Shown here piece after piece: positions 1,025 to 15,428 of a DNA stretch of 15,767 bases (its first letter is position 1; each line of letters begins with the position of its first letter). The stretch covers positions 1-15,767 of the forward strand of contig JBHIAT010000078.1 of NCBI GenBank assembly GCA_046758705.1, written 5' to 3'. Source of the stretch: Candidatus Bipolaricaulia bacterium. Lineage in GTDB: Bacteria > Bipolaricaulota > Bipolaricaulia > JBHIAT01. A program made the translations under genes and the position numbers. Below the pieces are notes generated by a model. It worked only from the letters and a program-made list of their open reading frames with translations, did not search any database and was not told the origin of the DNA.

Positions 1025-1073
1025 ACCTTAGATCCACCCCAACCAACTCCTGACTTTTCTTGTCCCTCAAAAG

Positions 1074-1103
1074 TTGCATCGCATTTCTTCCTCTGACTAT
1101 AAT
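1074..1103 (+). promoter_or_regulatory. Sigma70-type promoter, divergent, driving the CMD gene leader
   Basis: TTGCAT (1074-1079), 18-nt spacer, TATAAT (1098-1103). Confidence 0.6.
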
Positions 1104-1161
1104 GATTTGCGTCAGTGAAACCGCTGATGAAAATCAAAAAATTAAGGGGTCATTGCTTGCT

Positions 1162-1189
1162 GTAGAGGTGGGTTTGAAACCTGCTCTGC
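1162..1189 (+). repeat. GTAG-type REP-like palindrome (single degenerate copy)
   Basis: GTAGAGGTGGGTTTGAAACCTGCTCTGC: a GTAG tetranucleotide followed by an imperfect palindrome centred on GGTTT-G-AAACC. Confidence 0.5.
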
Positions 1190-1311
1190 CATGAGGCAGA
1201 TCAAGAGCAAGGAGGTGATGCTATTCTATCGGACGGCGGAGGTTGACGAACCACTGCGGCGATTGCCGTAGGGACGGTCAATTGAACTCAGCAATTTGTG
1301 AAAGGAGAATT

Positions 1312-1692
1312 ATGTCACGCGAGACGGTACAGGCCGAAATGAAACAAATCCTTGGGCAGGTACCTGGGTTTTTTGAGGGTTTGCCTGATGACACCGTTGA
1401 CGGAGAGTGGGAACTGTTCAAACGATTCGAACTCGGCGAGACCGCAATTCCGGCCAAATATAGGGAGTTGATCGGGGTTGCCGTATCATCCGTCCTCCAC
1501 TGCTGGTACTGCTCCAACTTCCACTCGGCATTGGCCCAGTTCCACGGAGCGAGTGAGGCGGAGGTTCAGGAAGCGGCGCACCTCGCCAAGTTCACAGCGG
1601 GCTGGAGCACCTATTTAAACGGGTCGCTGTATGATCGCGACCGGTTTATGAAAGAGTTGCAGGAGATAGGGGAATACCTCAGCCAAAGCTGA
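1312..1692 (+). CDS. Carboxymuconolactone decarboxylase / AhpD-like family protein (CxxC)
   Basis: RBS AAAGGAG at 1301-1307, then ATG 1312. IPAKYRELIGVAVSSVLHCWYCSNFH matches the AhpD core (E...CxxC...H); GASEAEVQEA follows. Confidence 0.9.
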   Translation: MSRETVQAEMKQILGQVPGFFEGLPDDTVDGEWELFKRFELGETAIPAKYRELIGVAVSSVLHCWYCSNFHSALAQFHGASEAEVQEAAHLAKFTAGWSTYLNGSLYDRDRFMKELQEIGEYLSQS

Positions 1693-1810
1693 TACCTTCC
1701 CCTGCAGAAGGCGAAGGACGAGTCGCAGGTTGTACCATTAGTCCATATCTGAGATCTCCCGCCGGGGGAGAGCGGGGAGTAACCCTTGCAGCTCACTCTG
1801 CAATGAGCCG

Positions 1811-1858
1811 GCCAGGAGCTTGGTGGCCTGAAGTCGCCGGGCTTCCTGGTTGCTTTTC
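1811..1858 (+). terminator. Probable intrinsic terminator after the CMD gene
   Basis: CCAGGAGCTTGGTGGC-CTGAA-GTCGCCGGGCTTCCTGG forms a long stem with G-U pairs, followed by TTGCTTTTC. Confidence 0.6.
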
Positions 1859-2062
1859 AGCATGATCAGCCTTGGTGGATTGCTTAGCAACGCCTGCTAA
1901 TTACCGCTTTTAATTCTTTTCGGCAAGAGTATAAACCTTGATTCCCTACAGGTCGGAGTCAAATTTTACTGTAAACGGCAATTGGGTGACGCTGCCGGAT
2001 TTCGAGCTCGTGTAGGTGTTTTTCCGACTTGTCTTTTTTTGTGGAAACCATCTCGATTTTAG

Positions 2063-2272
2063 GGTGCTCCAGAGGCAGAAGCCCCAGATGTCGACGACGA
2101 TGTGGATCCCACCGATCCCGCGATGCTGGGACAGGCGAGGCGACGGTTTAAAAAGCGCCTGAATGGGATTATCAACGTAAGAACTGACGGGAATGATCTT
2201 TACTACGCGAGGAGGGTAGCGGCGGGGTATCAGTTCGTGACTTACAAGCAGGCGGTGGCACCACGCGATTAG
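2063..2272 (+). pseudogene. 3' fragment of an unknown gene
   Basis: Open frame ...PEAEAPDVDDDVDPTDPAMLGQARRRFKKRLNGIINVRTDGNDLYYARRVAAGYQFVTYKQAVAPRD* with an in-frame TAG at 2060-2062 just upstream. Its stop overlaps the stop of a convergent ORF. Confidence 0.35.
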
Positions 2273-2466
2273 TAGTCCTGCGTTGAGTTGGAGTGTCGCC
2301 TAACAATCGCTGCAGCAGATGCGGCTAACGCTGCATAGAAATCGGCGGCGTTTTCGCTGTTGACGGTGCTGGTCAGTGAACCGTATCCCGCCCGCCGTGC
2401 AGCATCGTCAAGCAGATCTATGACAAGCTCGGGGGTGGACGGGAAACAGGCGACAGGTAGATCCAC
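2269..2466 (-). pseudogene. 3' fragment of an unknown gene
   Basis: DLPVACFPSTPELVIDLLDDAARRAGYGSLT... has protein-like composition and no good RBS. Its stop overlaps the convergent stop at 2270-2272. Confidence 0.35.
2425..2445 (+). repeat. Direct repeat copy 1 (21 bp)
   Basis: AAGCTCGGGGGTGGACGGGAA; 19/21 identical to 2770-2790. Confidence 0.8.
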
Positions 2467-2474
2467 TTATCAAC

Positions 2475-2515
2475 TTGAGATTTCGAGGGTCCCTACGTTA
2501 CGATAATCGTGGAGG
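2475..2515 (+). promoter_or_regulatory. Putative promoter, palindrome and RBS of the DUF433 operon
   Basis: TTGAGA (2475-2480), 18-nt spacer, TACGAT (2499-2504); palindrome ACGAT-A-ATCGT (2500-2510); GGAGG (2511-2515). Confidence 0.45.
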
Positions 2516-2524
2516 ATCACGGAA

Positions 2525-2752
2525 ATGACTAAGGACGCTGTGATTCAATGCTCTAAAGATATTCTCGGGGGCACTCCTGTGTTCAAGGGAACCCGAGTGC
2601 CCGTAAAAACCTTCATTGATTATCTGGAAGCCGGGGAGAGCCTGGACGACTTTCTCGAAGATTTTCCAACCGTCACACGCGAGCAGACCTTGCAAGTGCT
2701 TGAGCTTGCCAAGGATGCACTGCTAAACGATTTGAATGAGACTTCTGTTTGA
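2525..2752 (+). CDS. DUF433 family protein (putative antitoxin, VapB45-like)
   Basis: ILGGTPVFKGTRVPVKTFIDYLEAGESLDDFLEDFPTV is the classic DUF433 signature; GGAGG RBS upstream. Confidence 0.93.
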   Translation: MTKDAVIQCSKDILGGTPVFKGTRVPVKTFIDYLEAGESLDDFLEDFPTVTREQTLQVLELAKDALLNDLNETSV

Positions 2753-2783
2753 CGAGTCATTACCACGAAAAACTCGGGGGTAG
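2736..2783 (+). pseudogene. Truncated DUF5615/PIN-like toxin (N-terminal ~12 residues only)
   Basis: ATG 2736 overlaps the end of DUF433 and reads MRLLFDESLPRK, the typical start of PIN-like partners of DUF433, then TRG* (TAG 2781-2783). Confidence 0.75.
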
Positions 2784-2790
2784 ACGGGAA
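2770..2790 (+). repeat. Direct repeat copy 2 (21 bp)
   Basis: AAACTCGGGGGTAGACGGGAA, 345 bp downstream of copy 1. Confidence 0.8.
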
Positions 2791-2910
2791 GAAAGATGAG
2801 ATTGCATTTTTGAGCCTGGACGGCATAAAATCCCAATTGCAGAGTTATATAGAAAATGCTCATCTAACACGTTCAAAGACTTTGTTGAGCAATTCAAGCA
2901 GGTGTAGTTG

Positions 2911-3537
2911 ATGGATCCCAAACAGATCGTTGCACAGGGGTATGACCGTATTGATGAGCGGCATAGCGAATGGGCAAGCCGGGTTCGAAAGGAGGAACGC
3001 GCTCAATACACGTCCATACTGCTCGAAGAACTACCTGAAGGTGCTGAGGTGCTTGAACTCGGCTGCGGCGTGGGAATACCAACAACACGACAACTGGCAC
3101 AGCGCTTCGTGGTCACAGGTGTGGACATTTCTGCGCGGCAGATTGCGCTCGCTCGTCAGAATGTCCCTGCGGCAAAGTTCATCCATGCCGACATGATGGA
3201 ACTCGACCTTCCACCAGCTAGCTTTGATGCTGTCGTAGCGTTCTATTCCATCATCCATGTACCTCGTCAGGAACATCCCAAGCTCTTGCAGACGATTGCT
3301 ACATGGTTGCGATCTGGAGGGTTGTTGGTGGTGACGATGGGTGCCAGTTCGACAGATGTAGGTTTTGAAGAGGATTGGCTGGGCGCCCCCATGTACTGGA
3401 GTAGTTATGGCAGCGAAACCAACAAGCACCTCGTCGAAGCAACGGGCTTGCATATCATCAGCGCACGAGAAGAGACAGCAGAAGAATTTGGTGAGCTCGT
3501 GACCTTTCTTTGGGTAGTGGCTCAAAAGCCTACTTAG
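2911..3537 (+). CDS. Class I SAM-dependent methyltransferase
   Basis: VLELGCGVG (motif I), VTGVDIS, ADM, FDAVVAFYSIIH, LRSGGLLVV. Start is ATG 2911 or TTG 2908. Confidence 0.92.
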   Translation: MDPKQIVAQGYDRIDERHSEWASRVRKEERAQYTSILLEELPEGAEVLELGCGVGIPTTRQLAQRFVVTGVDISARQIALARQNVPAAKFIHADMMELDLPPASFDAVVAFYSIIHVPRQEHPKLLQTIATWLRSGGLLVVTMGASSTDVGFEEDWLGAPMYWSSYGSETNKHLVEATGLHIISAREETAEEFGELVTFLWVVAQKPT

Positions 3538-3567
3538 AGGACAGCTAATATTTTCTAAGGAGGAAAC

Positions 3568-5604
3568 ATGAAAACACACAGCATAGAAGCGTATGACCCA
3601 TCGTATCCTCCTGCCTACCTGGCCAATGGCCTGGTGGGATTACGCCTCGGCCAAATTCCGTTCTTGAACGGGAGTGCCCTCGTGAACGGGTTTGTGCATC
3701 ACAGATTGGATGACCGCTACGAGCAGTATGCCCCGGCCCCGTTCCCGATCGGCGCCGACCTGCTTATCGATCGCACCTGGCTGCAACGGGCTCCCGATCA
3801 TGCTGTTTTCCAGGAGCAACACTACGACTTCTCTTGCGGCGAGCTCGTCAGTCGCTTCGATTTCTCCGTCGATGGCGTGACGGCTCACGTTGAGGTGCTG
3901 ACCTTTTGCAGTCGAACGCTGCCGAGCCTCGTACTCCAAGAGATCATCGTCAGCGTGGACGAGCCATGCAACCTGGGCTTCCGTGCCGGCATCGAAATGG
4001 CCGATCTGCCCGGACGTTCCCTCGACAGACGATTGATTCACAAACCGCTTGGCGATGCCATCCTTCTTTGGGAAGGGAACGGCGGACTGACCACGGTAGG
4101 CGCCGCCTTCTTTGCCACGTTTGAGGGAGAGGACGCGGTCGAGGTCGAGCGCTACGACTGGCCCTACAGCTATGACAGCTCCTGCAACCTCTGCAAGGAA
4201 TATCGCCTCGAAGCGCAACCGGGAAAACGATATCGGATGCGACAGTGGGGATCGCTGGTGCCCGGCATCATGCATTCCGAGCCCCACTTTCAAGCGGTCC
4301 GAGCGATGAACGCCGGACGATGGCGCGGATTTGATGCCCTGCGTGACGAGAATCGCGCGGCTTGGGAAGAGCTGTGGCAGGGAAGAGTGCAGATTCTGGG
4401 CGCCAAGGAGAGATGGCAGGAGATCGCCGATGCCGCGTACTTCTATCTCCATAGCTCTGCCCATCCGGCCATGCCGTTGAGCGTCGCCCCGTTCGGCTTG
4501 AGTCACACAGAGTTGTACAATGGCCATGTCTTCTGGGATACTGAGACCTTCATCTTTCCACCGGCGCTGCTCACCGCCCCCGATGCCGCCCGGGCGATGC
4601 TCGAATACCGCAGCCGCGATCTGCAGGCGGCACGGTATAACGCCGCACTCCTCGGCTACCGCGGGATTCAATTTCCGTGGGAAACCTGCTTATACGGAGA
4701 CGAGGTCACCCCGATGTGGGCTTCCGTGGGATGGGGTGAACACCATGTAAACCTGGATGTCGCGTTTGCCTTCGCCCAGTACGTCCACGCCACCGGCGAT
4801 GAACGGTTTCTGCGAGACCATGCCTGGCCCGTGCTTGAGGGCGTGGCCGAATGGATCGTAAGCCGCGTGACCCAGACAAAGCGCGGCTACGAAATCCGCC
4901 ACGTCACCGGCATCGACGAGGGCATTACGAACATCCACAACAACGCCTACACCAACATTGCCAGCATCGTGGTGCTGCGTGAAGCCATCGAGTTTGCTCA
5001 GCGTATGGGCGTCCAACCGCCAGCGACGTGGGTCGACGTCGAGCAAAACATGTTCCTGCCCATTGATCCAAAGCTGAATATCATCCTCAAGCATGACGCT
5101 TACAAGTACAAGGGCGGCATCTGCACGCCAGAGACACTGGCAGGATTTTTTCCGCTGATCTATCGCCATCCCGACCAGGAGATAGAGAAGAACACCTATC
5201 AGTATCACATGGATCTGGCGGATACCTATTTGGGCTATCCGATGCTCTCCGCTGTCTATGGGGTGTGGGCAACCCGTATGGGGAGGCGAAAACTCGCGTT
5301 GGAGTTCTTTGAGAAGGGGATCGCGGACTACATCCTGGAACCGTTCATGGGATTTGGGGAGTTCAGTTCGAGACCGCAGCCTATGTTCCTGACCAATCCG
5401 GCCGGATTCCTGTTAGCGCTTTACTTCGGACTAACGGGATTAGAACTGGATGCCGGCCCTCCGGAAGACTGGTTCAAACGTCCGATCGTCATGCCCGAGG
5501 GATGGGACGGCATCGAAGTCGAACGGATCTGGGCCCGTGGCCGTCCCGTGCACCTGGTCGCTCGGCATGGTGATCAACAGGCGACGATGAGTTTCACGGA
5601 TTGA
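3568..5604 (+). CDS. Glycoside hydrolase family 65 protein (trehalose/kojibiose phosphorylase-like or inverting hydrolase)
   Basis: RBS AAGGAGG. YLANGLVG at the N-terminus; GLS...YNGHVFWDTE, FPWE, EHHVNLDVAFA, VTGIDE (general acid region) and NNAYTN. Confidence 0.9.
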   Translation: MKTHSIEAYDPSYPPAYLANGLVGLRLGQIPFLNGSALVNGFVHHRLDDRYEQYAPAPFPIGADLLIDRTWLQRAPDHAVFQEQHYDFSCGELVSRFDFSVDGVTAHVEVLTFCSRTLPSLVLQEIIVSVDEPCNLGFRAGIEMADLPGRSLDRRLIHKPLGDAILLWEGNGGLTTVGAAFFATFEGEDAVEVERYDWPYSYDSSCNLCKEYRLEAQPGKRYRMRQWGSLVPGIMHSEPHFQAVRAMNAGRWRGFDALRDENRAAWEELWQGRVQILGAKERWQEIADAAYFYLHSSAHPAMPLSVAPFGLSHTELYNGHVFWDTETFIFPPALLTAPDAARAMLEYRSRDLQAARYNAALLGYRGIQFPWETCLYGDEVTPMWASVGWGEHHVNLDVAFAFAQYVHATGDERFLRDHAWPVLEGVAEWIVSRVTQTKRGYEIRHVTGIDEGITNIHNNAYTNIASIVVLREAIEFAQRMGVQPPATWVDVEQNMFLPIDPKLNIILKHDAYKYKGGICTPETLAGFFPLIYRHPDQEIEKNTYQYHMDLADTYLGYPMLSAVYGVWATRMGRRKLALEFFEKGIADYILEPFMGFGEFSSRPQPMFLTNPAGFLLALYFGLTGLELDAGPPEDWFKRPIVMPEGWDGIEVERIWARGRPVHLVARHGDQQATMSFTD

Positions 5605-5636
5605 TCCCATTTCGTATAATGCCAAAGGAGGTATCC

Positions 5637-6194
5637 ATGGCCTGGATAAGGATCATTCAAGAGGACGAAGCCGAGGGCCCATTGCAGCAGACCTATGAAA
5701 GCCTCATCGAACCTTGGGGAGGTGTGGACAATATCATGAAAATCCACAGTCTCAACTTGCCTTCCCTGCATGCTCATTTCAAACTGTACAAAGTTCTCAT
5801 GCGTGGGCAATCTGATCTCAGTCTGGTTCAGCGCGAGATGATTGCCGTGGTTGTTTCGGCTACAAATCACTGCCATTACTGAATCACGCATCACGGAGCG
5901 GGGCTCCTTCGATTGACCAAAGATGAAGCTTTGGTCGAACAACTGAAATCGGATTTTCGCCAAGCTGACCTCAGTGAGTGTGATCAGGCCATGTTAACCT
6001 ATGCCGTGAAGCTTACAAAAGAACCTTGGCACATGGAGGAAGATGATGTAATTCGATTGCGGCAGGCGGGGTTCAGCGATGCCGCTATTTTGGACATTAA
6101 TCAGGTTACAGGGTATTTCGCTTTCACTAATCGCCTGACAGATGGATTGGGCGTGGAATTAGAACCGTTTTGGAAGGAAGAGGAGGCACAGTAG
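5637..6194 (+). CDS. AhpD-like/peroxidase-related selenoprotein (CxxU, 185 aa; TGA 5880-5882 read as Sec)
   Basis: RBS AAGGAGGT at 5625-5632, ATG 5637. ...REMIAVVVSATNHCHY-TGA-ITHHGAGLLRLTKDE... continues in frame into the second AhpD half (GFSDAAILDINQVTGYFAFTNRL). The TGA sits at the second Cys of CxxC. Confidence 0.9.
5882..5914 (+). promoter_or_regulatory. Bacterial SECIS-like stem-loop
   Basis: Upper stem GGAGC (5895-5899) / GCTCC (5903-5907) with a GGG loop that follows a 17-nt spacer after the TGA. Possible lower stem AATC (5882-5885) / GATT (5911-5914). Confidence 0.75.
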
Positions 6195-6198
6195 GAAA

Positions 6199-6957
6199 AT
6201 GGATTTTCCTGGAAAATGTGTATTAGTTACAGGCGGCTCTAGGGGCATCGGTCGGGCCATCGTCGAGGCTTTCACAAAACATGGCGCTTGCGTCGCCATC
6301 AACTATAAGGCAAACAGCCAAGCGGCTCATGAGACCATCGATTCTTTGCCCGGTGGCCCTCACATGGTTGTTCAAGCAGATGTGTCACAACCGGACACCG
6401 TTAAGTATCTTATTGAAGCAGTGATATCTGAATTTGGACGACTTGATATCGTTGTGAACAATGCAGGCACTTCAATCACTCATCGCATTGATGAAGTGGA
6501 TTTTACCGAATGGCAGCAGGCGTGGCGTGAGATACTTGCTGTCAACCTAATCGGCCCTGCAAATGTCACCTACTATACGGCCCAGCACATGATGAAAAAT
6601 GGTGGAGGTCGAATTGTGAACATCTCGTCACGAGGGGCATTTCGTGGTGAACCGGACAAGCCTGCTTATGGTGCCAGTAAGGCGGGTCTCAATGCGATGA
6701 GCCAATCGCTGGCGCAGAAGTTGGCGAAATACAACATCTTCATCGGGGTGGTTGCTCCGGGTTTTGTCGAGACCGATCTTTCTGCAGTCACATTATCAGG
6801 TCCTGAAGGCGATGAAATAAGAAGGCAAAGTCCTTTGGGTCGTGTGGCGCGTCCCGAAGAGGTAGCCACCGCCGTCTTATTTCTCGCTTCGGAAGGCACG
6901 GAATTTGTGACGGGTGCCATCATCGATGTGAATGGTGCATCATATTTGCGATCATAG
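6199..6957 (+). CDS. SDR family NAD(P)-dependent oxidoreductase (FabG-like)
   Basis: TGGSRGIG, NNAG, NISS, YGASK and PGFVET motifs. Confidence 0.95.
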   Translation: MDFPGKCVLVTGGSRGIGRAIVEAFTKHGACVAINYKANSQAAHETIDSLPGGPHMVVQADVSQPDTVKYLIEAVISEFGRLDIVVNNAGTSITHRIDEVDFTEWQQAWREILAVNLIGPANVTYYTAQHMMKNGGGRIVNISSRGAFRGEPDKPAYGASKAGLNAMSQSLAQKLAKYNIFIGVVAPGFVETDLSAVTLSGPEGDEIRRQSPLGRVARPEEVATAVLFLASEGTEFVTGAIIDVNGASYLRS

Positions 6958-7052
6958 ACTGATGATTCTAACACAAATAGATGGTGAACGGGCGACGACA
7001 AGTTTTACGGATTCATCTCGACAAACTGCCTAATCGAAAGGACTTACGTACC

Positions 7053-8255
7053 GTGCGCAAAGCAAGATTTCGCTGGTGGCACCCCCCCAGATCGGTCCAT
7101 GAGGAGAGAGATGAGGAACGCCGCGTCACTTGGCTCGAGCTGTTCCATGACCTGGTGTACGTAGTGATCATCGCCGAGCTCGCACATTCGCTATCCGAAC
7201 ACGTCAACCTTAAAGGCATCGGAACTTTTGTCTTTCTGTTTATCCCCGTTTGGTGGGCATGGATCAACGGCACCTACTATCACGACCTCCATGGAACGCG
7301 CGACATCAGTATCCGCATCTTTACCTTTCTCCAGATGTTCGCCGTTGCGGCAATGGCCATCTTTGCTCATGACGCCTTGGGGGAAACCTCAACTGGTTTT
7401 GCGCTCGCCTATGCCGCCCATCACTCCCTGCTGATCTACATGTGGTGGCGTGCCGGGTGGCATGACGCTCTGCACCGGTCGATCACGAACCGCTATAACG
7501 TCGGCTACTCTGTTTCGGTGCTGCTGTTTGTCATCTCCGTATTTGTGTCGGTGCCGTTGCGCTTCGTTCTTTGGGGGGTGGCCCTGTTTACCGACCTCAT
7601 CACCCCGACGGCCTCGCTTCCCCTGCAAAGGGATGACCCCGCCTGGGGAATCCCCTCCGCTTCGCTCATCGAACGCTTTGGCCTGTTCACGATCATCGTC
7701 TTAGGGGAGTCGATTGTGGGGGTGGTGCAGGGCGTCGCGGAACAGCTTCCTTTGACGGTCGATGTCGGCCTGTCCGGCGCGCTGGGGATGGTGCTCGCCT
7801 TTGGGCTATGGTGGACCTACTTTGACTTCGTCTTTAACCGCCCAGTCAAACCTGGAGTAGGATGGCAGGTGCTTTGGACCTACGGCCACCTGCCGATGGT
7901 GATCGGCATTACGGCCGTCGGGGCGGGCGTGCTGAACGTCGTTGCGCACGAAGGGCTGTCTCTACCAAACGAAGTTCGCTGGCTGCTGACCGGTGCGATC
8001 ACGTTGACGCTCACGTTCATTGGCGTCCTCATGCAGATCCCGCGCATCGATGAAGCGATCAAGAGGAGCTATCGTGTAGGGACCCTCCTTTTGCTGAGTG
8101 CAGGCATCGCTGCCATTGCTGTAGGGGTGTGGGGAGGTTCGCTCACGCCTGTGACGTTGCTCACCGTCCTGCTTGTGCTGATGCTCATCCCCATCGTTTA
8201 TAGCGTATATGTCTGGTTGAAGACGCGCATCGCCGATGAGCTTAGCTTGACGTGA
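7053..8255 (+). CDS. ltrA: Low temperature requirement protein A (LtrA) family membrane protein
   Basis: RRVTWLELFHDLVYV, WWAW, ERFGLFTIIVLGESI, WWTYF and YGHLP motifs; many hydrophobic segments. GTG 7053 follows GAAAGGA and is preferred over ATG 6981. Confidence 0.9.
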   Translation: MRKARFRWWHPPRSVHEERDEERRVTWLELFHDLVYVVIIAELAHSLSEHVNLKGIGTFVFLFIPVWWAWINGTYYHDLHGTRDISIRIFTFLQMFAVAAMAIFAHDALGETSTGFALAYAAHHSLLIYMWWRAGWHDALHRSITNRYNVGYSVSVLLFVISVFVSVPLRFVLWGVALFTDLITPTASLPLQRDDPAWGIPSASLIERFGLFTIIVLGESIVGVVQGVAEQLPLTVDVGLSGALGMVLAFGLWWTYFDFVFNRPVKPGVGWQVLWTYGHLPMVIGITAVGAGVLNVVAHEGLSLPNEVRWLLTGAITLTLTFIGVLMQIPRIDEAIKRSYRVGTLLLLSAGIAAIAVGVWGGSLTPVTLLTVLLVLMLIPIVYSVYVWLKTRIADELSLT

Positions 8256-8376
8256 ATCGTGCTGATGTGGGCCTTTGGGAGAGGAGGTACAACGATACCG
8301 GGTACCGGGCAATCCCACCGGGATGTGTTGAGATGGCACGTTGTTCTGGTACACGGATTTGCGCCGTGAGACCGGA

Positions 8377-9813
8377 TTAGTCAGGCTGTTTGGCTGTCTC
8401 CCGAATCTGCTGCCAAGCCCGATCGACATGATGTGCCTCGGTATGGGTCTGGCCAACGCAAAACCGCAGCGTGTATTGCTCGTTTAGCTTTGTATGGGTC
8501 AAATACAATTTACCACTTCGATTAAGCTGATCTAACAACCGTCGGTTGATCTCGTCCCCACCCACGTGTCGAAAGCAAACCAGGTTCAATGGCGGGGACA
8601 CAGCCAGTTCGAACCGATCGTCCTCCTGGACCCATCGGGCGAAATTCTGAGCCAGTTGGACGTGGCGTCTGATGTGATGGCGCAAGCCTTCCACCCCGTA
8701 ATGGCGAATGACAAACCAGAGTTTCAAGGAACGGAAGCGTCGACCAAGGGGGATGTGCCAGTCTCGATAATCGATGACAGCCCCGGACTCGGTGGCCTGA
8801 TTGCGCAGATACTCTGGGAGCACACTCAGCGTCTCGATCAAAGCCGCTCGGTCGGCCACATAAAAGCAATCACAATCGAAATTGGTGAACATCCACTTGT
8901 GAGGGTTAAAGCAATAACTGTCGGCGGACTCCATGCCGTCATGGAGGTAGCGATACTCCGGGCAGATAGCGGCCGTACCGGACATCGCGGCGTCAACGTG
9001 AAGCCAGACGCCTTCCTCGCGGCAGATCCGACCGATCTCCGGCAGTGGATCGATGGCGGTTGAAGATGTGGTCCCTAAAGTTGCACACACGAAGCAGGGA
9101 ATCAGGCCTGCCTGACGGTCCTGTTTGATCTGCTTGGTCAGTGCGTCGGGCCGCATCGCAAAGCGATCATCGACCTCAATCAGTCGAAGGTTCTGGCTGC
9201 CCAATCCGGCGATCTTGACCGCTTTCTCGATGGAAGAGTGCGCTTGCGTGGAGGCATAGGTGGTAAGACGTCCATCGCAGCCCCGTTGGTTGCTCTGGTA
9301 GTCCGTGGCGCGTTCGCGGGCCGCCAGAAGGGCACAGAGGGATGCACTGGAAGCAGTGTCCTGGATGACTCCGCCCCCGGTCCCCTCAGACTTGAACTTC
9401 GGAGGCAGGTCAAGCATATCCACCAACCAGTCGAGCACATGCGTCTCTAACTCTGTGCAAGCTGGACTCGTCGCCCATAACATGCCTTGGATCCCAAGGC
9501 CGGCCGAAAGCAACTCCCCCAGTATCGCAGGTCCTGAGGCGTTTGCCGGGAAGAAGGCGAAGAAATTGGGCGACTGCCAATGGGTGACTCCAGGAAGGAT
9601 CAACTCCTCGACATCTCTGAGAATGTTCTCAAAGGCTTCGCCCTGAAGCGGCGGCTCGGAAGGAAGCGAGGCGCGAATCTGCCCCGGCTGAGTTTGGGAT
9701 AAAACCGCAAATGACTCGATGTTCTGATAATAATCGGCGATCCAATCCACCACCGCCCGACCATACTGGCGGAACTCTTCTGGAGTCATATGAAAACTCT
9801 TCTCTGCAGACAT
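8377..9813 (-). CDS. Group II PLP-dependent decarboxylase (aromatic-L-amino-acid/DOPA decarboxylase-like)
   Basis: PGVTHWQSPNFFAFFP, WATSPACTELE, HVDAA, NPHKW (PLP lysine) and DWHIPLGRRFRSLKLW. ATG 9813 follows GAAAGGAAGAG. Confidence 0.95.
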   Translation of the reverse strand: MSAEKSFHMTPEEFRQYGRAVVDWIADYYQNIESFAVLSQTQPGQIRASLPSEPPLQGEAFENILRDVEELILPGVTHWQSPNFFAFFPANASGPAILGELLSAGLGIQGMLWATSPACTELETHVLDWLVDMLDLPPKFKSEGTGGGVIQDTASSASLCALLAARERATDYQSNQRGCDGRLTTYASTQAHSSIEKAVKIAGLGSQNLRLIEVDDRFAMRPDALTKQIKQDRQAGLIPCFVCATLGTTSSTAIDPLPEIGRICREEGVWLHVDAAMSGTAAICPEYRYLHDGMESADSYCFNPHKWMFTNFDCDCFYVADRAALIETLSVLPEYLRNQATESGAVIDYRDWHIPLGRRFRSLKLWFVIRHYGVEGLRHHIRRHVQLAQNFARWVQEDDRFELAVSPPLNLVCFRHVGGDEINRRLLDQLNRSGKLYLTHTKLNEQYTLRFCVGQTHTEAHHVDRAWQQIRETAKQPD

Positions 9814-9909
9814 CTCTCTTCCTTTCTCAAAGTTGTATTCCAGATGTCCTGAGTATATCCTGAAACGGATGTCTGGCGCATCTTCAAGCCCAGGAGGAGA
9901 GAGCGAATC

Positions 9910-10764
9910 ATGGTATTGTCCGATCTCGATGCACGAATCAGCGAACTGCAACCTAATACGATCACCGTACTGGGTTTACCGCTCGATGAGAACTCATCGT
10001 TCATGCATGGACCGGCGCTGGCACCAACGCGCATTCGCGAAGTGCTGCATACAGGCTCCACTAACCTCTGCGCCGAGAGCGGCCTCGATCTGGCTACCGA
10101 GCCGTGCTGGCAAGATCTGGGCGACTTGACATTGCCCAGTAGCATGACCGCTTTTACGGAGATCGAGCAGGCTATTACTCAGCTGCTGAACCGTGATGCG
10201 AGTGCACTCTCCTTAGGCGGAGATCATTCCGTTACTTACCCGATCTTGCGTGCTTACGCTCAAAAATACCCCGAGCTGAACGTTCTTCAATTGGACGCAC
10301 ACCCAGATCTCTACGACGAATGGGCAGGCAATCGTTACTCCCATGCCTGTCCATTTGCACGTATTATGGAGGAGCAGTTGGTGGCGCGATTGGTGCAGGT
10401 TGGTATCCGTACGATGAACCCCCATCAGCGCAGACAGGCTGAACGTTTCGGTGTCGAAGTGATCGAAATGCGTGATTGGCGTCCCGACATATCCTTGGAT
10501 TTCGACGGTCCGGTCTATCTATCACTTGACATAGACGTACTGGATCCGGCCTTTGCACCCGGCATTTCTCACCATGAACCCGGAGGGCTCACGACACGTG
10601 ATGTTTTGGTCATCATTCAAAACTTGAACGCCCCGATCGTTGGTGCTGACATCGTCGAATTCAATCCTAAGCGTGATCCGATGGGCATCACAGCTATGGT
10701 GGCTGTCAAGTTCTTGAAAGAAATCGTTGCGCAGATGCTGGAGAAAATCGCAGGAGGCAGGTAG
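9910..10764 (+). CDS. speB: Agmatinase/ureohydrolase (arginase family)
   Basis: GGDHS, DAHPD, SHACPF, SLDIDVLDPAFAPG and PGGL metal-binding motifs; AGGAGG RBS. The family is secure, the exact substrate is not. Confidence 0.85.
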   Translation: MVLSDLDARISELQPNTITVLGLPLDENSSFMHGPALAPTRIREVLHTGSTNLCAESGLDLATEPCWQDLGDLTLPSSMTAFTEIEQAITQLLNRDASALSLGGDHSVTYPILRAYAQKYPELNVLQLDAHPDLYDEWAGNRYSHACPFARIMEEQLVARLVQVGIRTMNPHQRRQAERFGVEVIEMRDWRPDISLDFDGPVYLSLDIDVLDPAFAPGISHHEPGGLTTRDVLVIIQNLNAPIVGADIVEFNPKRDPMGITAMVAVKFLKEIVAQMLEKIAGGR

Positions 10765-10809
10765 ATCCGTCATCTCCTGCTTCTTAACTAAAGAAAGGAG
10801 CAAACTGTC

Positions 10810-11799
10810 ATGGAGTATACGTATCTCGGCCGTACCGGCCTGAAAGTCAGCCGCCTGTGCCTGGGAACGATGAACTTCGGCGGAATCACCGACGAAGCCG
10901 ATGCTCATGCCATCATGGATCGGGCGTTGGAACTCGGCATCAACTTCTTTGATACAGCAAACGTCTATGGCTACACACCCGCTAAAGGCCATCGAGGCGC
11001 GACCGAAGAGATCATCAGCCGCTGGTTTGCAAACGGTGGTGGACGTCGGGAACGGGTCGTCATCGCCACTAAAGTCTATGGTGCCATGGGTGAATGGATG
11101 GATTGGCCGAACGAATCGCGGCTGTCAGCCCGGCATATCAAGTACGCCTGCGAAGCGAGTCTGCGCCGCCTACAAACGGACTACATCGACCTGTACCAGA
11201 TGCACCACATCGACCGCAACACGCCCTGGGAAGAGATCTGGCAAGCGATGGAGCAGCTGGTGCGCGAGGGCAAGGTGCTTTATATCGGCAGCAGCAACTT
11301 CGCCGGGTGGCACATCACACAGGCCAACGAGATCGCTAAAGCACGCCACTTCATGGGCCTTGTCTCCGAACAGAGCCTTTACAATCTCACAGCGCGCACG
11401 GTCGAAATGGATGTGCTCCCGGCTTGTGAATTCTATGGTCTCGGCGTCATTCCCTGGAGTCCGCTGGCCGGCGGACTACTCGGCGGCATCATCAAAAAGG
11501 AGGAGGGACACCGCCGGATGGAGGAATACATCCAGGAGCGGGTTGAGAGATTGCACCCCCAGTTGGAGCAGTACGAAGCCTTCTGCGACGAGATCGGTGA
11601 AAAACCAGCTGACGTCGCCCTGGCATGGTTGCTGCATCAGCCCACTGTTACCGCGCCGATCATCGGCCCGCGCATCATGGAACAGCTTGACGGCAGCCTG
11701 CGCGCGTTGGAGATCGAGCTGAGCGAGGCGCACCTCGCCAACCTCGACGAGATCTGGCCCGGTCCCGGCGACCCCTCACCTGAAGCCTATGCCTGGTAA
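10810..11799 (+). CDS. Aldo/keto reductase
   Basis: LGRTGLKVSRLCLGTMNFG, FFDTANVYG, IATK, LQTDYIDLYQMH and WSPLAGGLL motifs; AAAGGAG RBS. Confidence 0.95.
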   Translation: MEYTYLGRTGLKVSRLCLGTMNFGGITDEADAHAIMDRALELGINFFDTANVYGYTPAKGHRGATEEIISRWFANGGGRRERVVIATKVYGAMGEWMDWPNESRLSARHIKYACEASLRRLQTDYIDLYQMHHIDRNTPWEEIWQAMEQLVREGKVLYIGSSNFAGWHITQANEIAKARHFMGLVSEQSLYNLTARTVEMDVLPACEFYGLGVIPWSPLAGGLLGGIIKKEEGHRRMEEYIQERVERLHPQLEQYEAFCDEIGEKPADVALAWLLHQPTVTAPIIGPRIMEQLDGSLRALEIELSEAHLANLDEIWPGPGDPSPEAYAW

Positions 11800-11842
11800 C
11801 AGCACACAGGAGGATGATCAGGCGCTGGACAAGAGGTCAGAA

Positions 11843-12445
11843 ATGAAGCTATTCAATGTCATAAAACTGCCCAACATTATAATTATAAAACTGTCCAATA
11901 TATTTGTTCCCTGGTTTACAGAAGAAGTGGCCAGAGAGAATCAGTTTGTTGAACCGAATTTTAAATTAGGGCAGTTCTTTTTCGACAAGCGTACCGCTGT
12001 GGTACTCGTCGATGTACTGGATACCTACCAAAATCCCTGCTGTCTTTGTACGCCACGTTTAGCTCAAGAGTGGATGGACCGCGGACGTATCGTGCGTCTG
12101 CTTGATATCGACCGGCGCTTTCAATATCTGCCGGGATATCGCTTTTACAATTTTAAAAGACCAACAACGCTACATGAAGAGTTTGACGTAATTATCTGTG
12201 ACCCTCCTCGGTTTTCCGCAGCCAAACTGAAAATTTCAGTGGATATCTTGACGAAAAATATTCAAGATCAAGCCTTATTCATCCTGTTTCCCGTGAGCAG
12301 GGAGTCTAAACTGTTGCACGCGTTCTCCGATTATAATTTACAACCGACTGAATTTCCTATTGCACATAACAATGTCAAAAAAGAGCACGCGCATCTTTTT
12401 AAGTTGTATGGGAATCGCCCATTGAAGTCGCCGGAGAGTTCATAG
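11843..12445 (+). CDS. Putative N6-adenine/lysine methyltransferase of the ZCCHC4/EEF1AKMT1 (N6-adenineMlase-like) family
   Basis: GQFFFDKRT...LVDVL...CCLCTPRL...LLDIDRRF...FYNF...FDVIICDPPR follows the motif order of this family. ATG 11843 follows AGAGG; the start is uncertain. Confidence 0.7.
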   Translation: MKLFNVIKLPNIIIIKLSNIFVPWFTEEVARENQFVEPNFKLGQFFFDKRTAVVLVDVLDTYQNPCCLCTPRLAQEWMDRGRIVRLLDIDRRFQYLPGYRFYNFKRPTTLHEEFDVIICDPPRFSAAKLKISVDILTKNIQDQALFILFPVSRESKLLHAFSDYNLQPTEFPIAHNNVKKEHAHLFKLYGNRPLKSPESS

Positions 12446-12513
12446 TATTCTCTTCGTTGGTACAGTCTTTCCTACCTTGTTTCAGTGACACACAGCGAAG
12501 GAGGTGAAATAGG

Positions 12514-14040
12514 GTGTCCTTCGAATTTGAACTTGAAGAGATGACGATCCCCGAACTACAGGAAAAGATGGAATCGGGCACCTACAGCGCTCGTCAGATC
12601 ACCGAAATGTACCTTGAGCGGATCGAGAAACTCGATAAACAGGGGCCAGCGGTCAACGCCATTCTCGAACTAAATCCCGATGCGCTGGAGATCGCCGATT
12701 CGCTTGACGAAGAGCGTAAAGCGAAAGGTGCCCGCGGTCCACTGCATGGTATCCCTGTTGTGCTCAAAGATAACATCGACACGGCCGACCAAACGACGAC
12801 CACAGCCGGCTCACTCGCCCTCGCCGGTTCCATCCCCCTTCAGGATGCCTTTTTAGTGGGAAAACTTCGTGAAGCGGGTGCGGTGGTTCTCGGCAAGGCA
12901 AACCTCAGCGAGTGGGCCAACTTCCGGTCGGACCACTCCACCAGCGGCTGGAGCAGTCGCGGCGGTCAAACCCGCAATCCCTATGCTCTGGATCGAAACC
13001 CCTGCGGCTCCAGCTCAGGATCGGCGGTGGCCGTCGCGGCGAATCTTTGTGCTGTGGCCATTGGAACCGAAACAGATGGATCGATCATTTGCCCCTCGTC
13101 GGCCAATTCCATCGTCGGGATCAAACCGACACTGGGTCTGGTGAGCCGGTCTGGTATCATTCCGATCGCTCACAGTCAGGATACAGCTGGTCCGATGGCC
13201 CGAACCGTGACGGACGCGGCAGTTCTGCTCGGTGCGCTGACCGGCGTGGATCCACGGGACTCTGTCACCCAAGAGAGTCAGGGACAGTCTTATACCGATT
13301 ACACCCAGTTCCTGGACTCGAACGGCCTGCGGGGAGCGAGAATCGGCGTCGCACGCAACTTCTTCGGCTTTAACGAGAAGGTAGATCAGATCATGGATGC
13401 GGCGATCGAAGAGATGAAGCACCTCGGGGCCGAAATTGTCGATCCAGTGGATATCGAAACCGCCGGGCAGCTTAGGGAAACAGAACTTGAGGTGTTGTAC
13501 TACGAATTCAAAACCGATCTCAACAACTACCTGGCGGGATTGGGACCCGATGCCCCGGTACGTTCTCTAAAGGAGATCGTCGATTTTAACGAGCGAAATC
13601 GAGACACAGTGATGCCATACTTCGGTCAGGAGCACATGCTGAGGGCAGAAGAGAAAGGTTCGTTGACGAGCGAAGATTACATCGAAGCTCTGCAGAAAAA
13701 CCATCGGCTTACCAGGGAAGAGGGCATCGACGCGACATTGCGTAAGCATCGACTCGACGCCATCGTTGCACCGAGTGGAGGTCCAGCGTGGCTGACCGAC
13801 TGGGTCAACGGAGACCACCATATAGGCGGCAGTTCGTCCCCTGCCGCCGTGGCCGGTTATCCCAATGTCACGATTCCGGTCGGATATATATACGGCCTTC
13901 CCGTTGGTATCTCCTTTTTCACAGGAGCTTACCAAGAGCCGGTGCTCATCAAGCTGGCTTACGCTTTTGAGCAGGCGGCCCAGGTGCGCCAGCCACCGCA
14001 GTTCTTGGCCACTGCAAATTTAAATCTGGGTAGCCGATAA
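12514..14040 (+). CDS. Amidase signature family enzyme (peptide amidase-like)
   Basis: GPLHGIPVVLKDNI (Lys), GSSSGS and GTETDGSI give the Ser-cisSer-Lys triad; GTG start after AAGGAGGTGA. Confidence 0.95.
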   Translation: MSFEFELEEMTIPELQEKMESGTYSARQITEMYLERIEKLDKQGPAVNAILELNPDALEIADSLDEERKAKGARGPLHGIPVVLKDNIDTADQTTTTAGSLALAGSIPLQDAFLVGKLREAGAVVLGKANLSEWANFRSDHSTSGWSSRGGQTRNPYALDRNPCGSSSGSAVAVAANLCAVAIGTETDGSIICPSSANSIVGIKPTLGLVSRSGIIPIAHSQDTAGPMARTVTDAAVLLGALTGVDPRDSVTQESQGQSYTDYTQFLDSNGLRGARIGVARNFFGFNEKVDQIMDAAIEEMKHLGAEIVDPVDIETAGQLRETELEVLYYEFKTDLNNYLAGLGPDAPVRSLKEIVDFNERNRDTVMPYFGQEHMLRAEEKGSLTSEDYIEALQKNHRLTREEGIDATLRKHRLDAIVAPSGGPAWLTDWVNGDHHIGGSSSPAAVAGYPNVTIPVGYIYGLPVGISFFTGAYQEPVLIKLAYAFEQAAQVRQPPQFLATANLNLGSR

Positions 14041-14050
14041 GGAGATGATC

Positions 14051-14407
14051 ATGGATCGCAACGAATTCGGGTCGTGGATTGAAGGTTACATCAAAGCGTG
14101 GAACTCCAACGATCCCGAAGAGATTGGAGGACTGTTTGCTGAGGACGGGCTTTATTACACCGAACCCTATGCCGAGCCGTGGCGAGGTCGCCAAGAGATC
14201 GTGACCGAATGGTTAGGTCGGAAGGACGAGCCGGGAACTTTCGAGTTTCGCTATGAGATCCTGGGAGTATATGACAATTTGAGCGTCCTGCGCGGTTGGA
14301 CCAAATATCTTGATCCGGTGAAGGAATACAGCAACATCTGGATCGTGCGTCTCAACGAAAACGGCCAATGTACCGAGTTTACCGAATTCTGGATGAAACA
14401 TGAGTAA
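14051..14407 (+). CDS. SnoaL-like / NTF2 family protein
   Basis: WIEGYIKAWNSNDPEEIGGLFAEDGLYYTEP...GRQEIVTEW...GQCTEFTEFW; AAGGAG RBS overlapping the amidase stop. Confidence 0.88.
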   Translation: MDRNEFGSWIEGYIKAWNSNDPEEIGGLFAEDGLYYTEPYAEPWRGRQEIVTEWLGRKDEPGTFEFRYEILGVYDNLSVLRGWTKYLDPVKEYSNIWIVRLNENGQCTEFTEFWMKHE

Positions 14408-14424
14408 ATTAGCAAACTACTTCA

Positions 14425-14696
14425 AAGGGATATGATCCCCAGGGAGGATACTGGCGGGGCAGCGTCTGGGCACCGACAACCACCATGATGATCCGCGGTC
14501 TTGAGCACTATGGCCATCACAAACTCGCCCGCGAGATCGCGTCGAATCACCTTCACAACCTCGTCAACGTGCACAAGACAACGGGCACGATCTGGGAGAG
14601 AACTATGCCCCGGATCGGGTGGCACCGGGGAAGCCGGCCAAACCGGATTTCGTCGGATGGAGCGGCCTCGGCCCAATTCTGTATCTGATCGAACAC
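14425..14696 (+). pseudogene. Internal/C-terminal fragment of a GH63/MGH1-like (trehalase-like) glycoside hydrolase, frameshifted
   Basis: GYDPQGGYWRGSVWAPT..MMIRGLEHYG...TGTIWE, then a 2-nt AG duplication at 14597-14600, then NYAPD...PDFVGWSGLGPILYLIE. The YWRG.VW, WENY and FVGW motifs fit this family. Confidence 0.8.
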
Positions 14697-14974
14697 CCCA
14701 GCGATTCGAGCCGCAGAAGCCGCAGGAGTTAAATTTACCGTTCATCCATATGAACTCGATCGTCGACCGAGCGATTCCTACGGCGTGGAGGTGGCACACG
14801 CTTTGGGCGTCGATCCAGCACAAGTGTTCAAAACGCTCGTCGCCAAGCTCGACTCAGACCGCCTGGTCGTGGCCGTGATTCCGGTTTCATCTACGCTTGA
14901 TCTGAAGGCTTTGGCCACCACTTTTGGCACGAAACGCGCTGCGATGGCCTCGCCGTCAGAGGCAGAGCGTGCGA
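14695..14974 (+). pseudogene. ybaK: Truncated YbaK Cys-tRNA(Pro) deacylase
   Basis: TPAIRAAEAAGVKFTVHPYE...VFKTLV...VIPVSSTLDLKALA...MASPSEAERA. It lacks the start Met and the C-terminal GY..GGISP loop. Confidence 0.85.
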
Positions 14975-14975
14975 G

Positions 14976-15218
14976 AGGATCATTGGGGTTCACCCCGAGA
15001 CCCAGGGTAAAGGCCATAGGCGGGCGTTACTCAACGCAATCCATGCGCTGTCTGAAGCGCATCCGACATCAATCGGTGTAGCTCTAGACACGGAGAACCC
15101 GGTCAATGTGCCCCTGTATAAGCATTTTGGTTATCGGATAGTTAAAAAGACTAAACTGGACGATGTAGATGTGTGGTGTATGTTTAGACCCAACGGAGCG
15201 GAGGATGTGGTAAAGTGA
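14976..15218 (+). pseudogene. C-terminal half of a GNAT N-acetyltransferase
   Basis: IIGVHPETQGKGHRRALL (motif A QxxG) ... LDTENPVNVPLYKHFGY (motif B), stop at 15216-15218; no N-terminus. Not in the ORF track. Confidence 0.85.
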
Positions 15219-15428
15219 AAATTCACTTCATTCGACATGCAACATTGGTCATCTCTCTCAATGGAATCAACCTATTGGTTGATCCAATGCTAAGCCCTGC
15301 AAAATCACTGGATCCTATCTCGAATTCTCCTAATCCACAGCGAAATCCACTCGTTGAGCTTCCGTTTGATGAGCAGACACTCGATCAGCTTCTCGGACAG
15401 GTTGATGCTCTTCTCGTGACCCACTTAC
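15215..15428 (+). pseudogene. MBL-fold metallo-hydrolase interrupted by an IS
   Basis: MKIHFIRHAT...LLVDPML...RNPLVELP...DALLVTHL breaks inside the expected THxHxDH motif. The GTG start is coupled to the GNAT stop (GTGA). Confidence 0.85.

Follow-up and report, generated by a model that had tools for sequence, protein, structure and literature searches.

An AhpD-like CxxU gene with an in-frame TGA and a SECIS-like hairpin in a genome bin where no selenocysteine machinery was found

The window, that is, the whole stretch of 15,767 nucleotides analyzed here, is contig C78 of a metagenome-assembled genome (bin) of 3.70 Mb in 319 contigs, which is 93.86% complete and 4.69% contaminated. A frame of 185 codons on its forward strand opens with an ATG at position 5637, closes with a TAG ending at 6194 and contains one in-frame TGA (Table 1). 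ORF calling splits this frame into two ORFs, 5601-5882 and 5913-6194, which are parted only by the TGA at 5880-5882 and ten sense codons at 5883-5912 (ITHHGAGLLR). The read-through product has 185 residues, with the TGA as residue 82 in the motif N-H-C-H-Y-(TGA)-I-T-H-H, and the frame remains open for 103 codons after the TGA. The second OR­F has a TTG at 5913 as its sole start, and no Shine-Dalgarno motif precedes this TTG. A preliminary description of this DNA had pointed to the two ORFs in one frame, to the TTG as the only start of the second ORF, with no clear ribosome-binding site, to a TGA at the second Cys position of an AhpD motif, and to a GGAGC-GGG-GCTCC hairpin with a spacer of 17 nt to its loop G. 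All four observations were confirmed: the coordinates of the ORFs and of the TTG are as given above, the TGA aligns with the second Cys in the CxxC of homologs, and the hairpin occupies 5895-5907.

The ATG at 5637 is likely to be the start of the gene, judging from the AAGGAGG ahead of it and from homologs, which open with MAWI. The upstream gene ends with a TGA at 5602-5604, leaving a gap of 32 nt to this ATG, and a promoter-like site was placed there by its match to the consensus; two such sites were found against 1.8 expected in shuffles. The gene stands in a tight row of genes on the same strand, with gaps of 32, 4 and 23 nt. Its neighbors encode GH65, SDR, LtrA and PLP decarboxylase proteins, and no peroxiredoxin was found in the window. 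All 26 columns that are invariant in alignment A1 (29 sequences) are retained in the window's protein; by its sequence the gene is intact, with no visible decay. For annotation, the two ORF fragments are to be merged into one selenoprotein gene. A second gene of the CMD/AhpD family is present on the same contig at 1243-1692 (+); it carries an ordinary Cys motif, LHCWYCSNFH (Pfam CMD, E = 1.6e-13).

Table 1. Coordinates of features in the window and of sel clusters in three other genomes of the class
Feature	Position	Strand	Remark
Promoter-like site TTCACG-16-TATAAT	5593..5620	+	Consensus match only; placed in the 32-nt gap after the upstream stop
Shine-Dalgarno AAGGAGG	5625..5631	+	5 nt ahead of ATG 5637; read from the sequence
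AhpD-like gene (TIGR01926, CMD fold), 185 codons + TAG, one in-frame TGA	5637..6194	+	Profile and PDB matches
Glu67	5835..5837	+	Spacing of relay residue Glu118 of M. tuberculosis AhpD; invariant in A1
Cys79, first residue of CxxU	5871..5873	+	Invariant in A1
TGA, residue 82, selenocysteine codon of the family	5880..5882	+	Aligns with the second Cys of CxxC homologs
His86	5892..5894	+	Spacing of relay residue His137 (U82 + 4); invariant in A1
SECIS-like hairpin	5895..5907	+	GGAGC 5895-5899, loop GGG 5900-5902, GCTCC 5903-5907
sel cluster, L230 (G110:C18)	9363-14848		
sel cluster, L231 (G108:C27)	9784-15420		
sel cluster, L233 (G034:C17)	5908-10321		

Membership of the read-through protein in a known family is shown by profile matches. 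The NCBIfam model TIGR01926 ("peroxidase-related enzyme", 178 positions) matched residues 2-174 with 152.9 bits against a cut-off of 81.8, and the Pfam domain CMD (PF02627) covered residues 49-96, across the TGA. The CMD fold is settled by sequence matches to the PDB, with 3c1l_A at E = 5e-35. The solved Cys-form TIGR01926 proteins, 3c1l (Mlr4105), 2pfx, 6k40, 2oyo and 2prr, match the protein over near full length with E values of 5e-35 to 4e-20 and share the N-x-C-x-Y-C region with it. All of them are CxxC proteins; they differ from the window's gene in having a Cys in place of the TGA and in possessing no SECIS hairpin. To our knowledge, the physiological substrates of these Cys forms are mostly unknown.

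The residues E67, C79, Y81 and H86 are invariant across the 29 aligned sequences. Glu67 precedes Cys79 by 12 residues, the same distance as from Glu118 to Cys130 of M. tuberculosis AhpD, and E67, C79, Y81, U82 and H86 together are spaced like the proton relay of AhpD, as reported for Glu118/Cys130/His132/Cys133/His137 of M. tuberculosis AhpD and Glu36/Cys48/Tyr50/Cys51/His55 of PA0269 of P. aeruginosa (PMC3141380, in the passages cited here). These two proteins nonetheless belong to another subfamily: the window's protein matches only the core-domain model TIGR00778 (39.7 bits), and the second Cys of the relay is replaced by Sec in its predicted form. From these likenesses, the product may function as a thiol/selenol oxidoreductase.

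The gene is of a kind that has been catalogued since 2005 and abounds in ocean metagenomes. A survey of the Sargasso Sea from that year described an "AhpD-like protein" (COG2128, CXXU) with 27 sequences and a figure of its SECIS (PMC1088965). The GOS survey of 2008 counted 299 selenoproteins and 902 Cys homologs of "AhpD-like 1", which ranks fourth by selenoprotein number in the summary table (PMC2398784), and a table in a 2026 review lists "AhpD-like protein, TIGR01926, CxxU" (PMC13188914). With this family ("AhpD-like 1", COG2128/TIGR01926), as described in the passages cited, the window's gene has in common the profile, the CxxU with U at the second Cys, a hairpin just 3' of the UGA with a G in its small apical loop and a length of about 180-185 residues. 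The word "hidden" in the preliminary description was overstated for a family that these three sources already list. The gene itself is no different from other members. The oddity is the bin, in which no Sec machinery was found; the published surveys began from Sec-using genomes or from unbinned reads.

Conservation of the TGA was evident from alignment of the read-through protein with its homologs, a comparison that the preliminary description had proposed. Among 80 related loci fetched as DNA from species-representative genomes, the column held TGA in 58, Cys (TGC or TGT) in 21 and Gly in one, so that 79 of the 80 had either Cys or TGA. The TGA forms, with identities of 41-71%, came from MAGs labeled Chloroflexota, Acidobacteriota, Gemmatimonadota, Marinimicrobia, SAR324, Planctomycetota, Bacteroidota and others. 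A 92-row tree was built from the window, the 80 loci and 11 relatives from the class of the bin, with L024 and L026 dropped by a motif and length filter. On this tree the TGA label required 3 changes, against a mean of 27.2 when the labels were shuffled.

The hairpin begins 12 nt past the UGA, with a spacer of 17 nt from the TGA to the first G of its loop; the usual UGA distance window for bacterial SECIS elements is 16-37 nt. Its stem comprises 5 bp, and that of most relatives 6 bp. Like the fdhF-type SECIS of E. coli, which is read by SelB, it is a stem-loop in the coding region immediately after the UGA with a guanosine in its small apical loop (PMC1088965, in the passage cited). The stem in the window is short. 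The consensus that follows the TGA in the 58 TGA-form sequences reads ATN NNN CAT CAC GGA GCG GGN CTC CGT. The homologous stem in these sequences, formed by columns 14-19 and 25-30, has 85.6% of its cells paired, a value that falls to 28-54% when the 3' partner is slid by 1-3 columns in either direction, and the loop column G22 is conserved at 90% or above.

Synonymous codon choice at the pairing sites is biased in the same TGA-form genes. Gly+5 is encoded by GGR in 48 of 49 cases at the hairpin vs. 196 of 488 elsewhere, Leu+8 by CTY in 51 of 58 vs. 375 of 966, and Arg+9 by CGT in 33 of 44 vs. 80 of 660, while the bias is absent in 24 Cys forms. The Fisher p values for this codon bias (1e-13 to 1e-19) are inflated because the sequences are related; its direction is clear, and points to RNA-level selection on the hairpin, which is what a SECIS would predict. 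The window itself has GGA and CTC, with CTT in place of CGT, and gains a C-G pair beside the loop. Measures of folding were unremarkable by comparison with shuffled or recoded sequences: the folding energy of the window's hairpin had a z of -0.77, with 47 of 200 shuffles as good; RNAalifold predicted no consensus structure in the TGA forms; the minimum free energy of the 45 nt after the codon gave no signal against synonymous recodings (median z of -0.07 in TGA forms and -0.05 in Cys forms); and compensatory change in the fixed-register stem was found in only 2 pairs and 4 cells, which is not above shuffles.

The preliminary description had further supposed that the host carries selA, selB, selC and selD. 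This was not borne out in the 93.9%-complete bin, where searches for selA, selB, selD and tRNA-Sec found none of the four. The sole match of the bin over the threshold of the tRNA-Sec model RF01852 (48.2 bits) is a tRNA-Leu, ARAGORN reported neither a tRNA-SeC nor a UCA anticodon, and blastn with five tRNA-Sec genes gave T-arm fragments only. No selA was found in the bin, the selB search returned EF-Tu-like matches only, and the selD search returned paralog-level matches only (49 bits vs. a cut-off of 125). Likewise, tblastn of the bin with nine Sel proteins from TGA-bearing genomes yielded paralogs only. Run as controls on 10 other genomes with a TGA ortholog, such searches were positive, and each genome has at least one sel gene: selA passed the cut-off in nine of the 10 and selD in eight, tRNA-Sec was found in all five genomes tested and selB in four of the five. 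The bin is a MAG, and the absence of sel genes from it is no proof of absence.

A scan of the bin for in-frame TGAs gave 172 candidates, and Pfam was run on the 99 that have no Shine-Dalgarno motif with an in-frame start just after the TGA. No other selenoprotein type was found among these 99. A Pfam domain runs across the TGA in the AhpD-like gene, an MFS gene, an hsdM gene and perhaps a gene of the metallo-beta-lactamase fold. The MFS gene (C24:10323-11258, L156) has MFS_1 at residues 28-311 and its TGA at residue 112, the hsdM gene (C111:1-714, L197) has HsdM_N at 46-185 and its TGA at 126, and the third (C210:1553-2287, L221) has its TGA at 120. There is no redox motif at any of the three, and they are probably pseudogenes or errors.

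It appears almost certain that the locus is an AhpD-like gene in its Sec form, equipped with a SECIS and divided by ORF calling, from a family known since 2005. The 185-residue selenoenzyme of the preliminary description stands insofar as there is one CxxU AhpD-like gene with a conserved hairpin, which matches TIGR01926 and has TGA at the same column in 58 of 80 loci; the insertion of Sec in the host organism is what we infer from this. In a cell carrying the gene, the hairpin 12 nt beyond UGA-82 would recruit SelB and Sec-tRNA(Sec), which would decode the codon as selenocysteine. The resulting thiol/selenol oxidoreductase of 185 residues would have Glu67, Cys79, Tyr81, Sec82 and His86 in its active site. 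We incline, at slightly better than an even chance, to the view that the selenoprotein gene is a working one whose sel cluster was not captured: either a cluster of about 6 kb with tRNA-Sec, selA, selB and selD would have been left unbinned, or C78 would derive from a related Sec-using population.

The main alternative, to which we give a considerable chance though one short of even, is that the gene is stranded in an organism without Sec machinery, either after a single deletion of the cluster or after transfer of the gene or operon from a Sec user. Translation would then end at UGA-82 and yield a fragment of 81 residues, and the 3' half with its hairpin would be a young fossil. In its strictest form, the bin is correct, the organism has no selA, selB, selD or tRNA-Sec, and an intact CxxU gene with its SECIS, set in an operon, is stranded in a genome without Sec; we give this form a real chance, but one well below even. 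A bolder variant, in which the UGA is still read through without a Sec system, appears very improbable. These weights, a little above even for the working gene, below even for the stranded one and very small for what is left, are a rough judgment, with no computed posterior. The failure to find the four sel components in a bin of this completeness, or any other Sec-type gene among the 99 of 172 candidates examined with Pfam, favors a stranded gene. On the other side, each of the 10 genomes compared, all with a TGA ortholog, has at least part of the machinery, and absence is unprovable from a MAG.

The arrangement of the sel genes in the class bears on both readings. selA occurs in 8 of 184 genomes of the class. 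In all four Sec-using class genomes that were fetched, selA and selB are adjacent, and in three of them tRNA-Sec and selD accompany them within about 6 kb (Table 1). Both genomes of family f11 have the order tRNA-Sec, selA, selB, selD with TGA, and then a second selD with Cys; one genome of family f9 has selA, selB, tRNA-Sec and selD, and the other f9 stretch has selA and selB only. In the tandem selD genes of the two f11 genomes, the first has CFG-TGA-xGK and the second a Cys at the matching place. Because the machinery of the class is a single cluster, failure to bin just one locus of about 6 kb would take all sel genes from view. For the same reason, a truly stranded gene would be a fresh snapshot of a lineage losing its selenoproteome in one step, and would show that loss or gain of the Sec trait in this class can happen through a single compact cassette.

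Two Sec-using relatives supplied three synteny anchors that fall inside contigs of the bin, and there is no sel cluster at any of them. The flank upstream of the cluster in G108 (an Rrf2-like gene, feoB and a small gene) is spread over the ends of two contigs, C16 and C4, the latter of which continues without sel genes. The feoB-like gene is divided between C16:1-1875 and C4:1-303, which correspond to residues 1-561 and 526-626 of the G108 homolog, so C16 and C4 are neighbors in the genome. The three-gene flank upstream of the cluster in G110 corresponds to C47:6477-9576, and C47 continues for 12 kb without sel genes. On the downstream side of the cluster, both relatives have a trxB-like gene; its match in the bin is C58:12121-13107 (57%), and the genes upstream of that match are not sel genes. 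Missing at all three anchors, the cluster would seem to be gone from the genome, as a stranded gene would have it. The position of the cluster is, nonetheless, unfixed in the group because the two f11 relatives differ upstream of it.

The origin of the gene and of its contig was also considered. C78 has a G+C content of 53.6%, compared with 57.0 ± 2.4% for the genome (z of about -1.4), and ranks 147 of 160 by tetranucleotide distance; its composition is mildly atypical, and neither flags nor clears misbinning. Its PLP decarboxylase shares 79% identity with class genomes, and the best class matches of its amidase (65%) and LtrA (50%) are both in the Sec-using family f11. As a yardstick, GyrB of the bin is 59-70% identical to that of class members. 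The bin contains no additional close copy of the other C78 genes. This, together with best matches that lie within the class of the bin, argues against simple misbinning of C78.

The rest of C78 appears to be at home in the class, but the AhpD-like gene itself seems not to have come by vertical descent. In the 92-row tree, the window's protein falls in an all-TGA group of 22 rows from other phyla (SH-aLRT of 93), and 11 Cys forms of the bin's own class group apart from it. A stop at the Sec column occurs in none of the 41 other class genomes with a homolog, where identity to the window is at most 50%. The G+C content of the gene is 48.7%, below that of both the window and the genome. These points favor a stranded gene. 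What speaks for the working gene is the lack of decay: the codons past the TGA are all open, the invariant residues and the hairpin are kept, and the gene remains tightly packed in its same-strand row.

Two loci share part of this neighborhood. In L044, a Neomarinimicrobiota MAG, a TGA-form AhpD-like gene (3001-3543, 60%) is accompanied by a convergent gene for a PLP-dependent decarboxylase (4935-6362, 68%); the counterparts in the window are at 5637-6194 and 8377-9951. In L027, from Chloroflexota, an LtrA-like gene (25%) directly follows the AhpD-like gene, much as LtrA comes after SDR in the window. As for the GyrB of the bin (C10:36795-39128, L229), it has 778 residues, and most class relatives align to residues 1-425 only; those of G108, G109, G139 and G157, from ORFs of 745-1121 residues, align to about 540. 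There may be an insertion or intein in GyrB after about residue 425.

A recent nonsense mutation or a sequencing error in a codon for Cys (TGC or TGT) or Trp (TGG) is highly improbable. TGA is one base away from each of these codons, and among the best 120 proteins of the collection the Sec column holds W in 48, with 52 C, 7 G, 2 R, 1 L, 1 A and 9 that are off-motif. The W, however, is an artefact of gene calling. When L051 is translated, the product departs from P0047, with its W82, solely in having TGA where P0047 has W, and the same is true of L048 and P0036; since these pairs differ only there, W at this column is a TGA translated under another genetic code. Metagenome gene callers that switch to code 4 (perhaps 25) would thus disguise selenoproteins as CxxW or CxxG proteins. 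Besides a genome with no Sec machinery, treated above, the preliminary description had named two ways in which its reading could fail. One, that close relatives would all have TGC or TGT and no hairpin, is contradicted by the DNA of the 58 TGA-form loci and by their paired stem. The other, a sequencing error, found no support: in three runs from a single study, contigs cover the window at about 10-12x (C78 at about 10.7, 11.7 and 10.6) and show the TGA unchanged, with no variant listed. These contigs could be the source data themselves, and for that reason do not count as independent support. No RNA dataset was found among the public runs holding the contig. The contigs of all four runs have a joint from 1025 to 9829 that skips 8803 bases, with the same 32 letters between and a shorter side of 30-32 letters; it is probably a short shared word or the contig of another organism.

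A genome-wide sense meaning of TGA (code 4 or 25), or two separate small genes, would account for two halves open in one frame but is the least probable explanation of all, given that TGA is the commonest stop of the bin's long ORFs (728 of 1498) and terminates four genes of the window, that no tRNA with a UCA anticodon was found in the bin, that Pfam, NCBIfam and PDB matches run across the TGA, and that the second ORF has only its TTG start and no ribosome-binding site. A reading of the TGA as Trp or Gly was ruled out by this stop usage and by the artefactual W in homologs. A true Gly codon does occur at the Sec/Cys column in L098, a Thermotogae-labeled MAG, whose homolog (3001-3525) has the motif C-P-Y-G and is, on account of this codon, a CxxG variant without the second redox residue.
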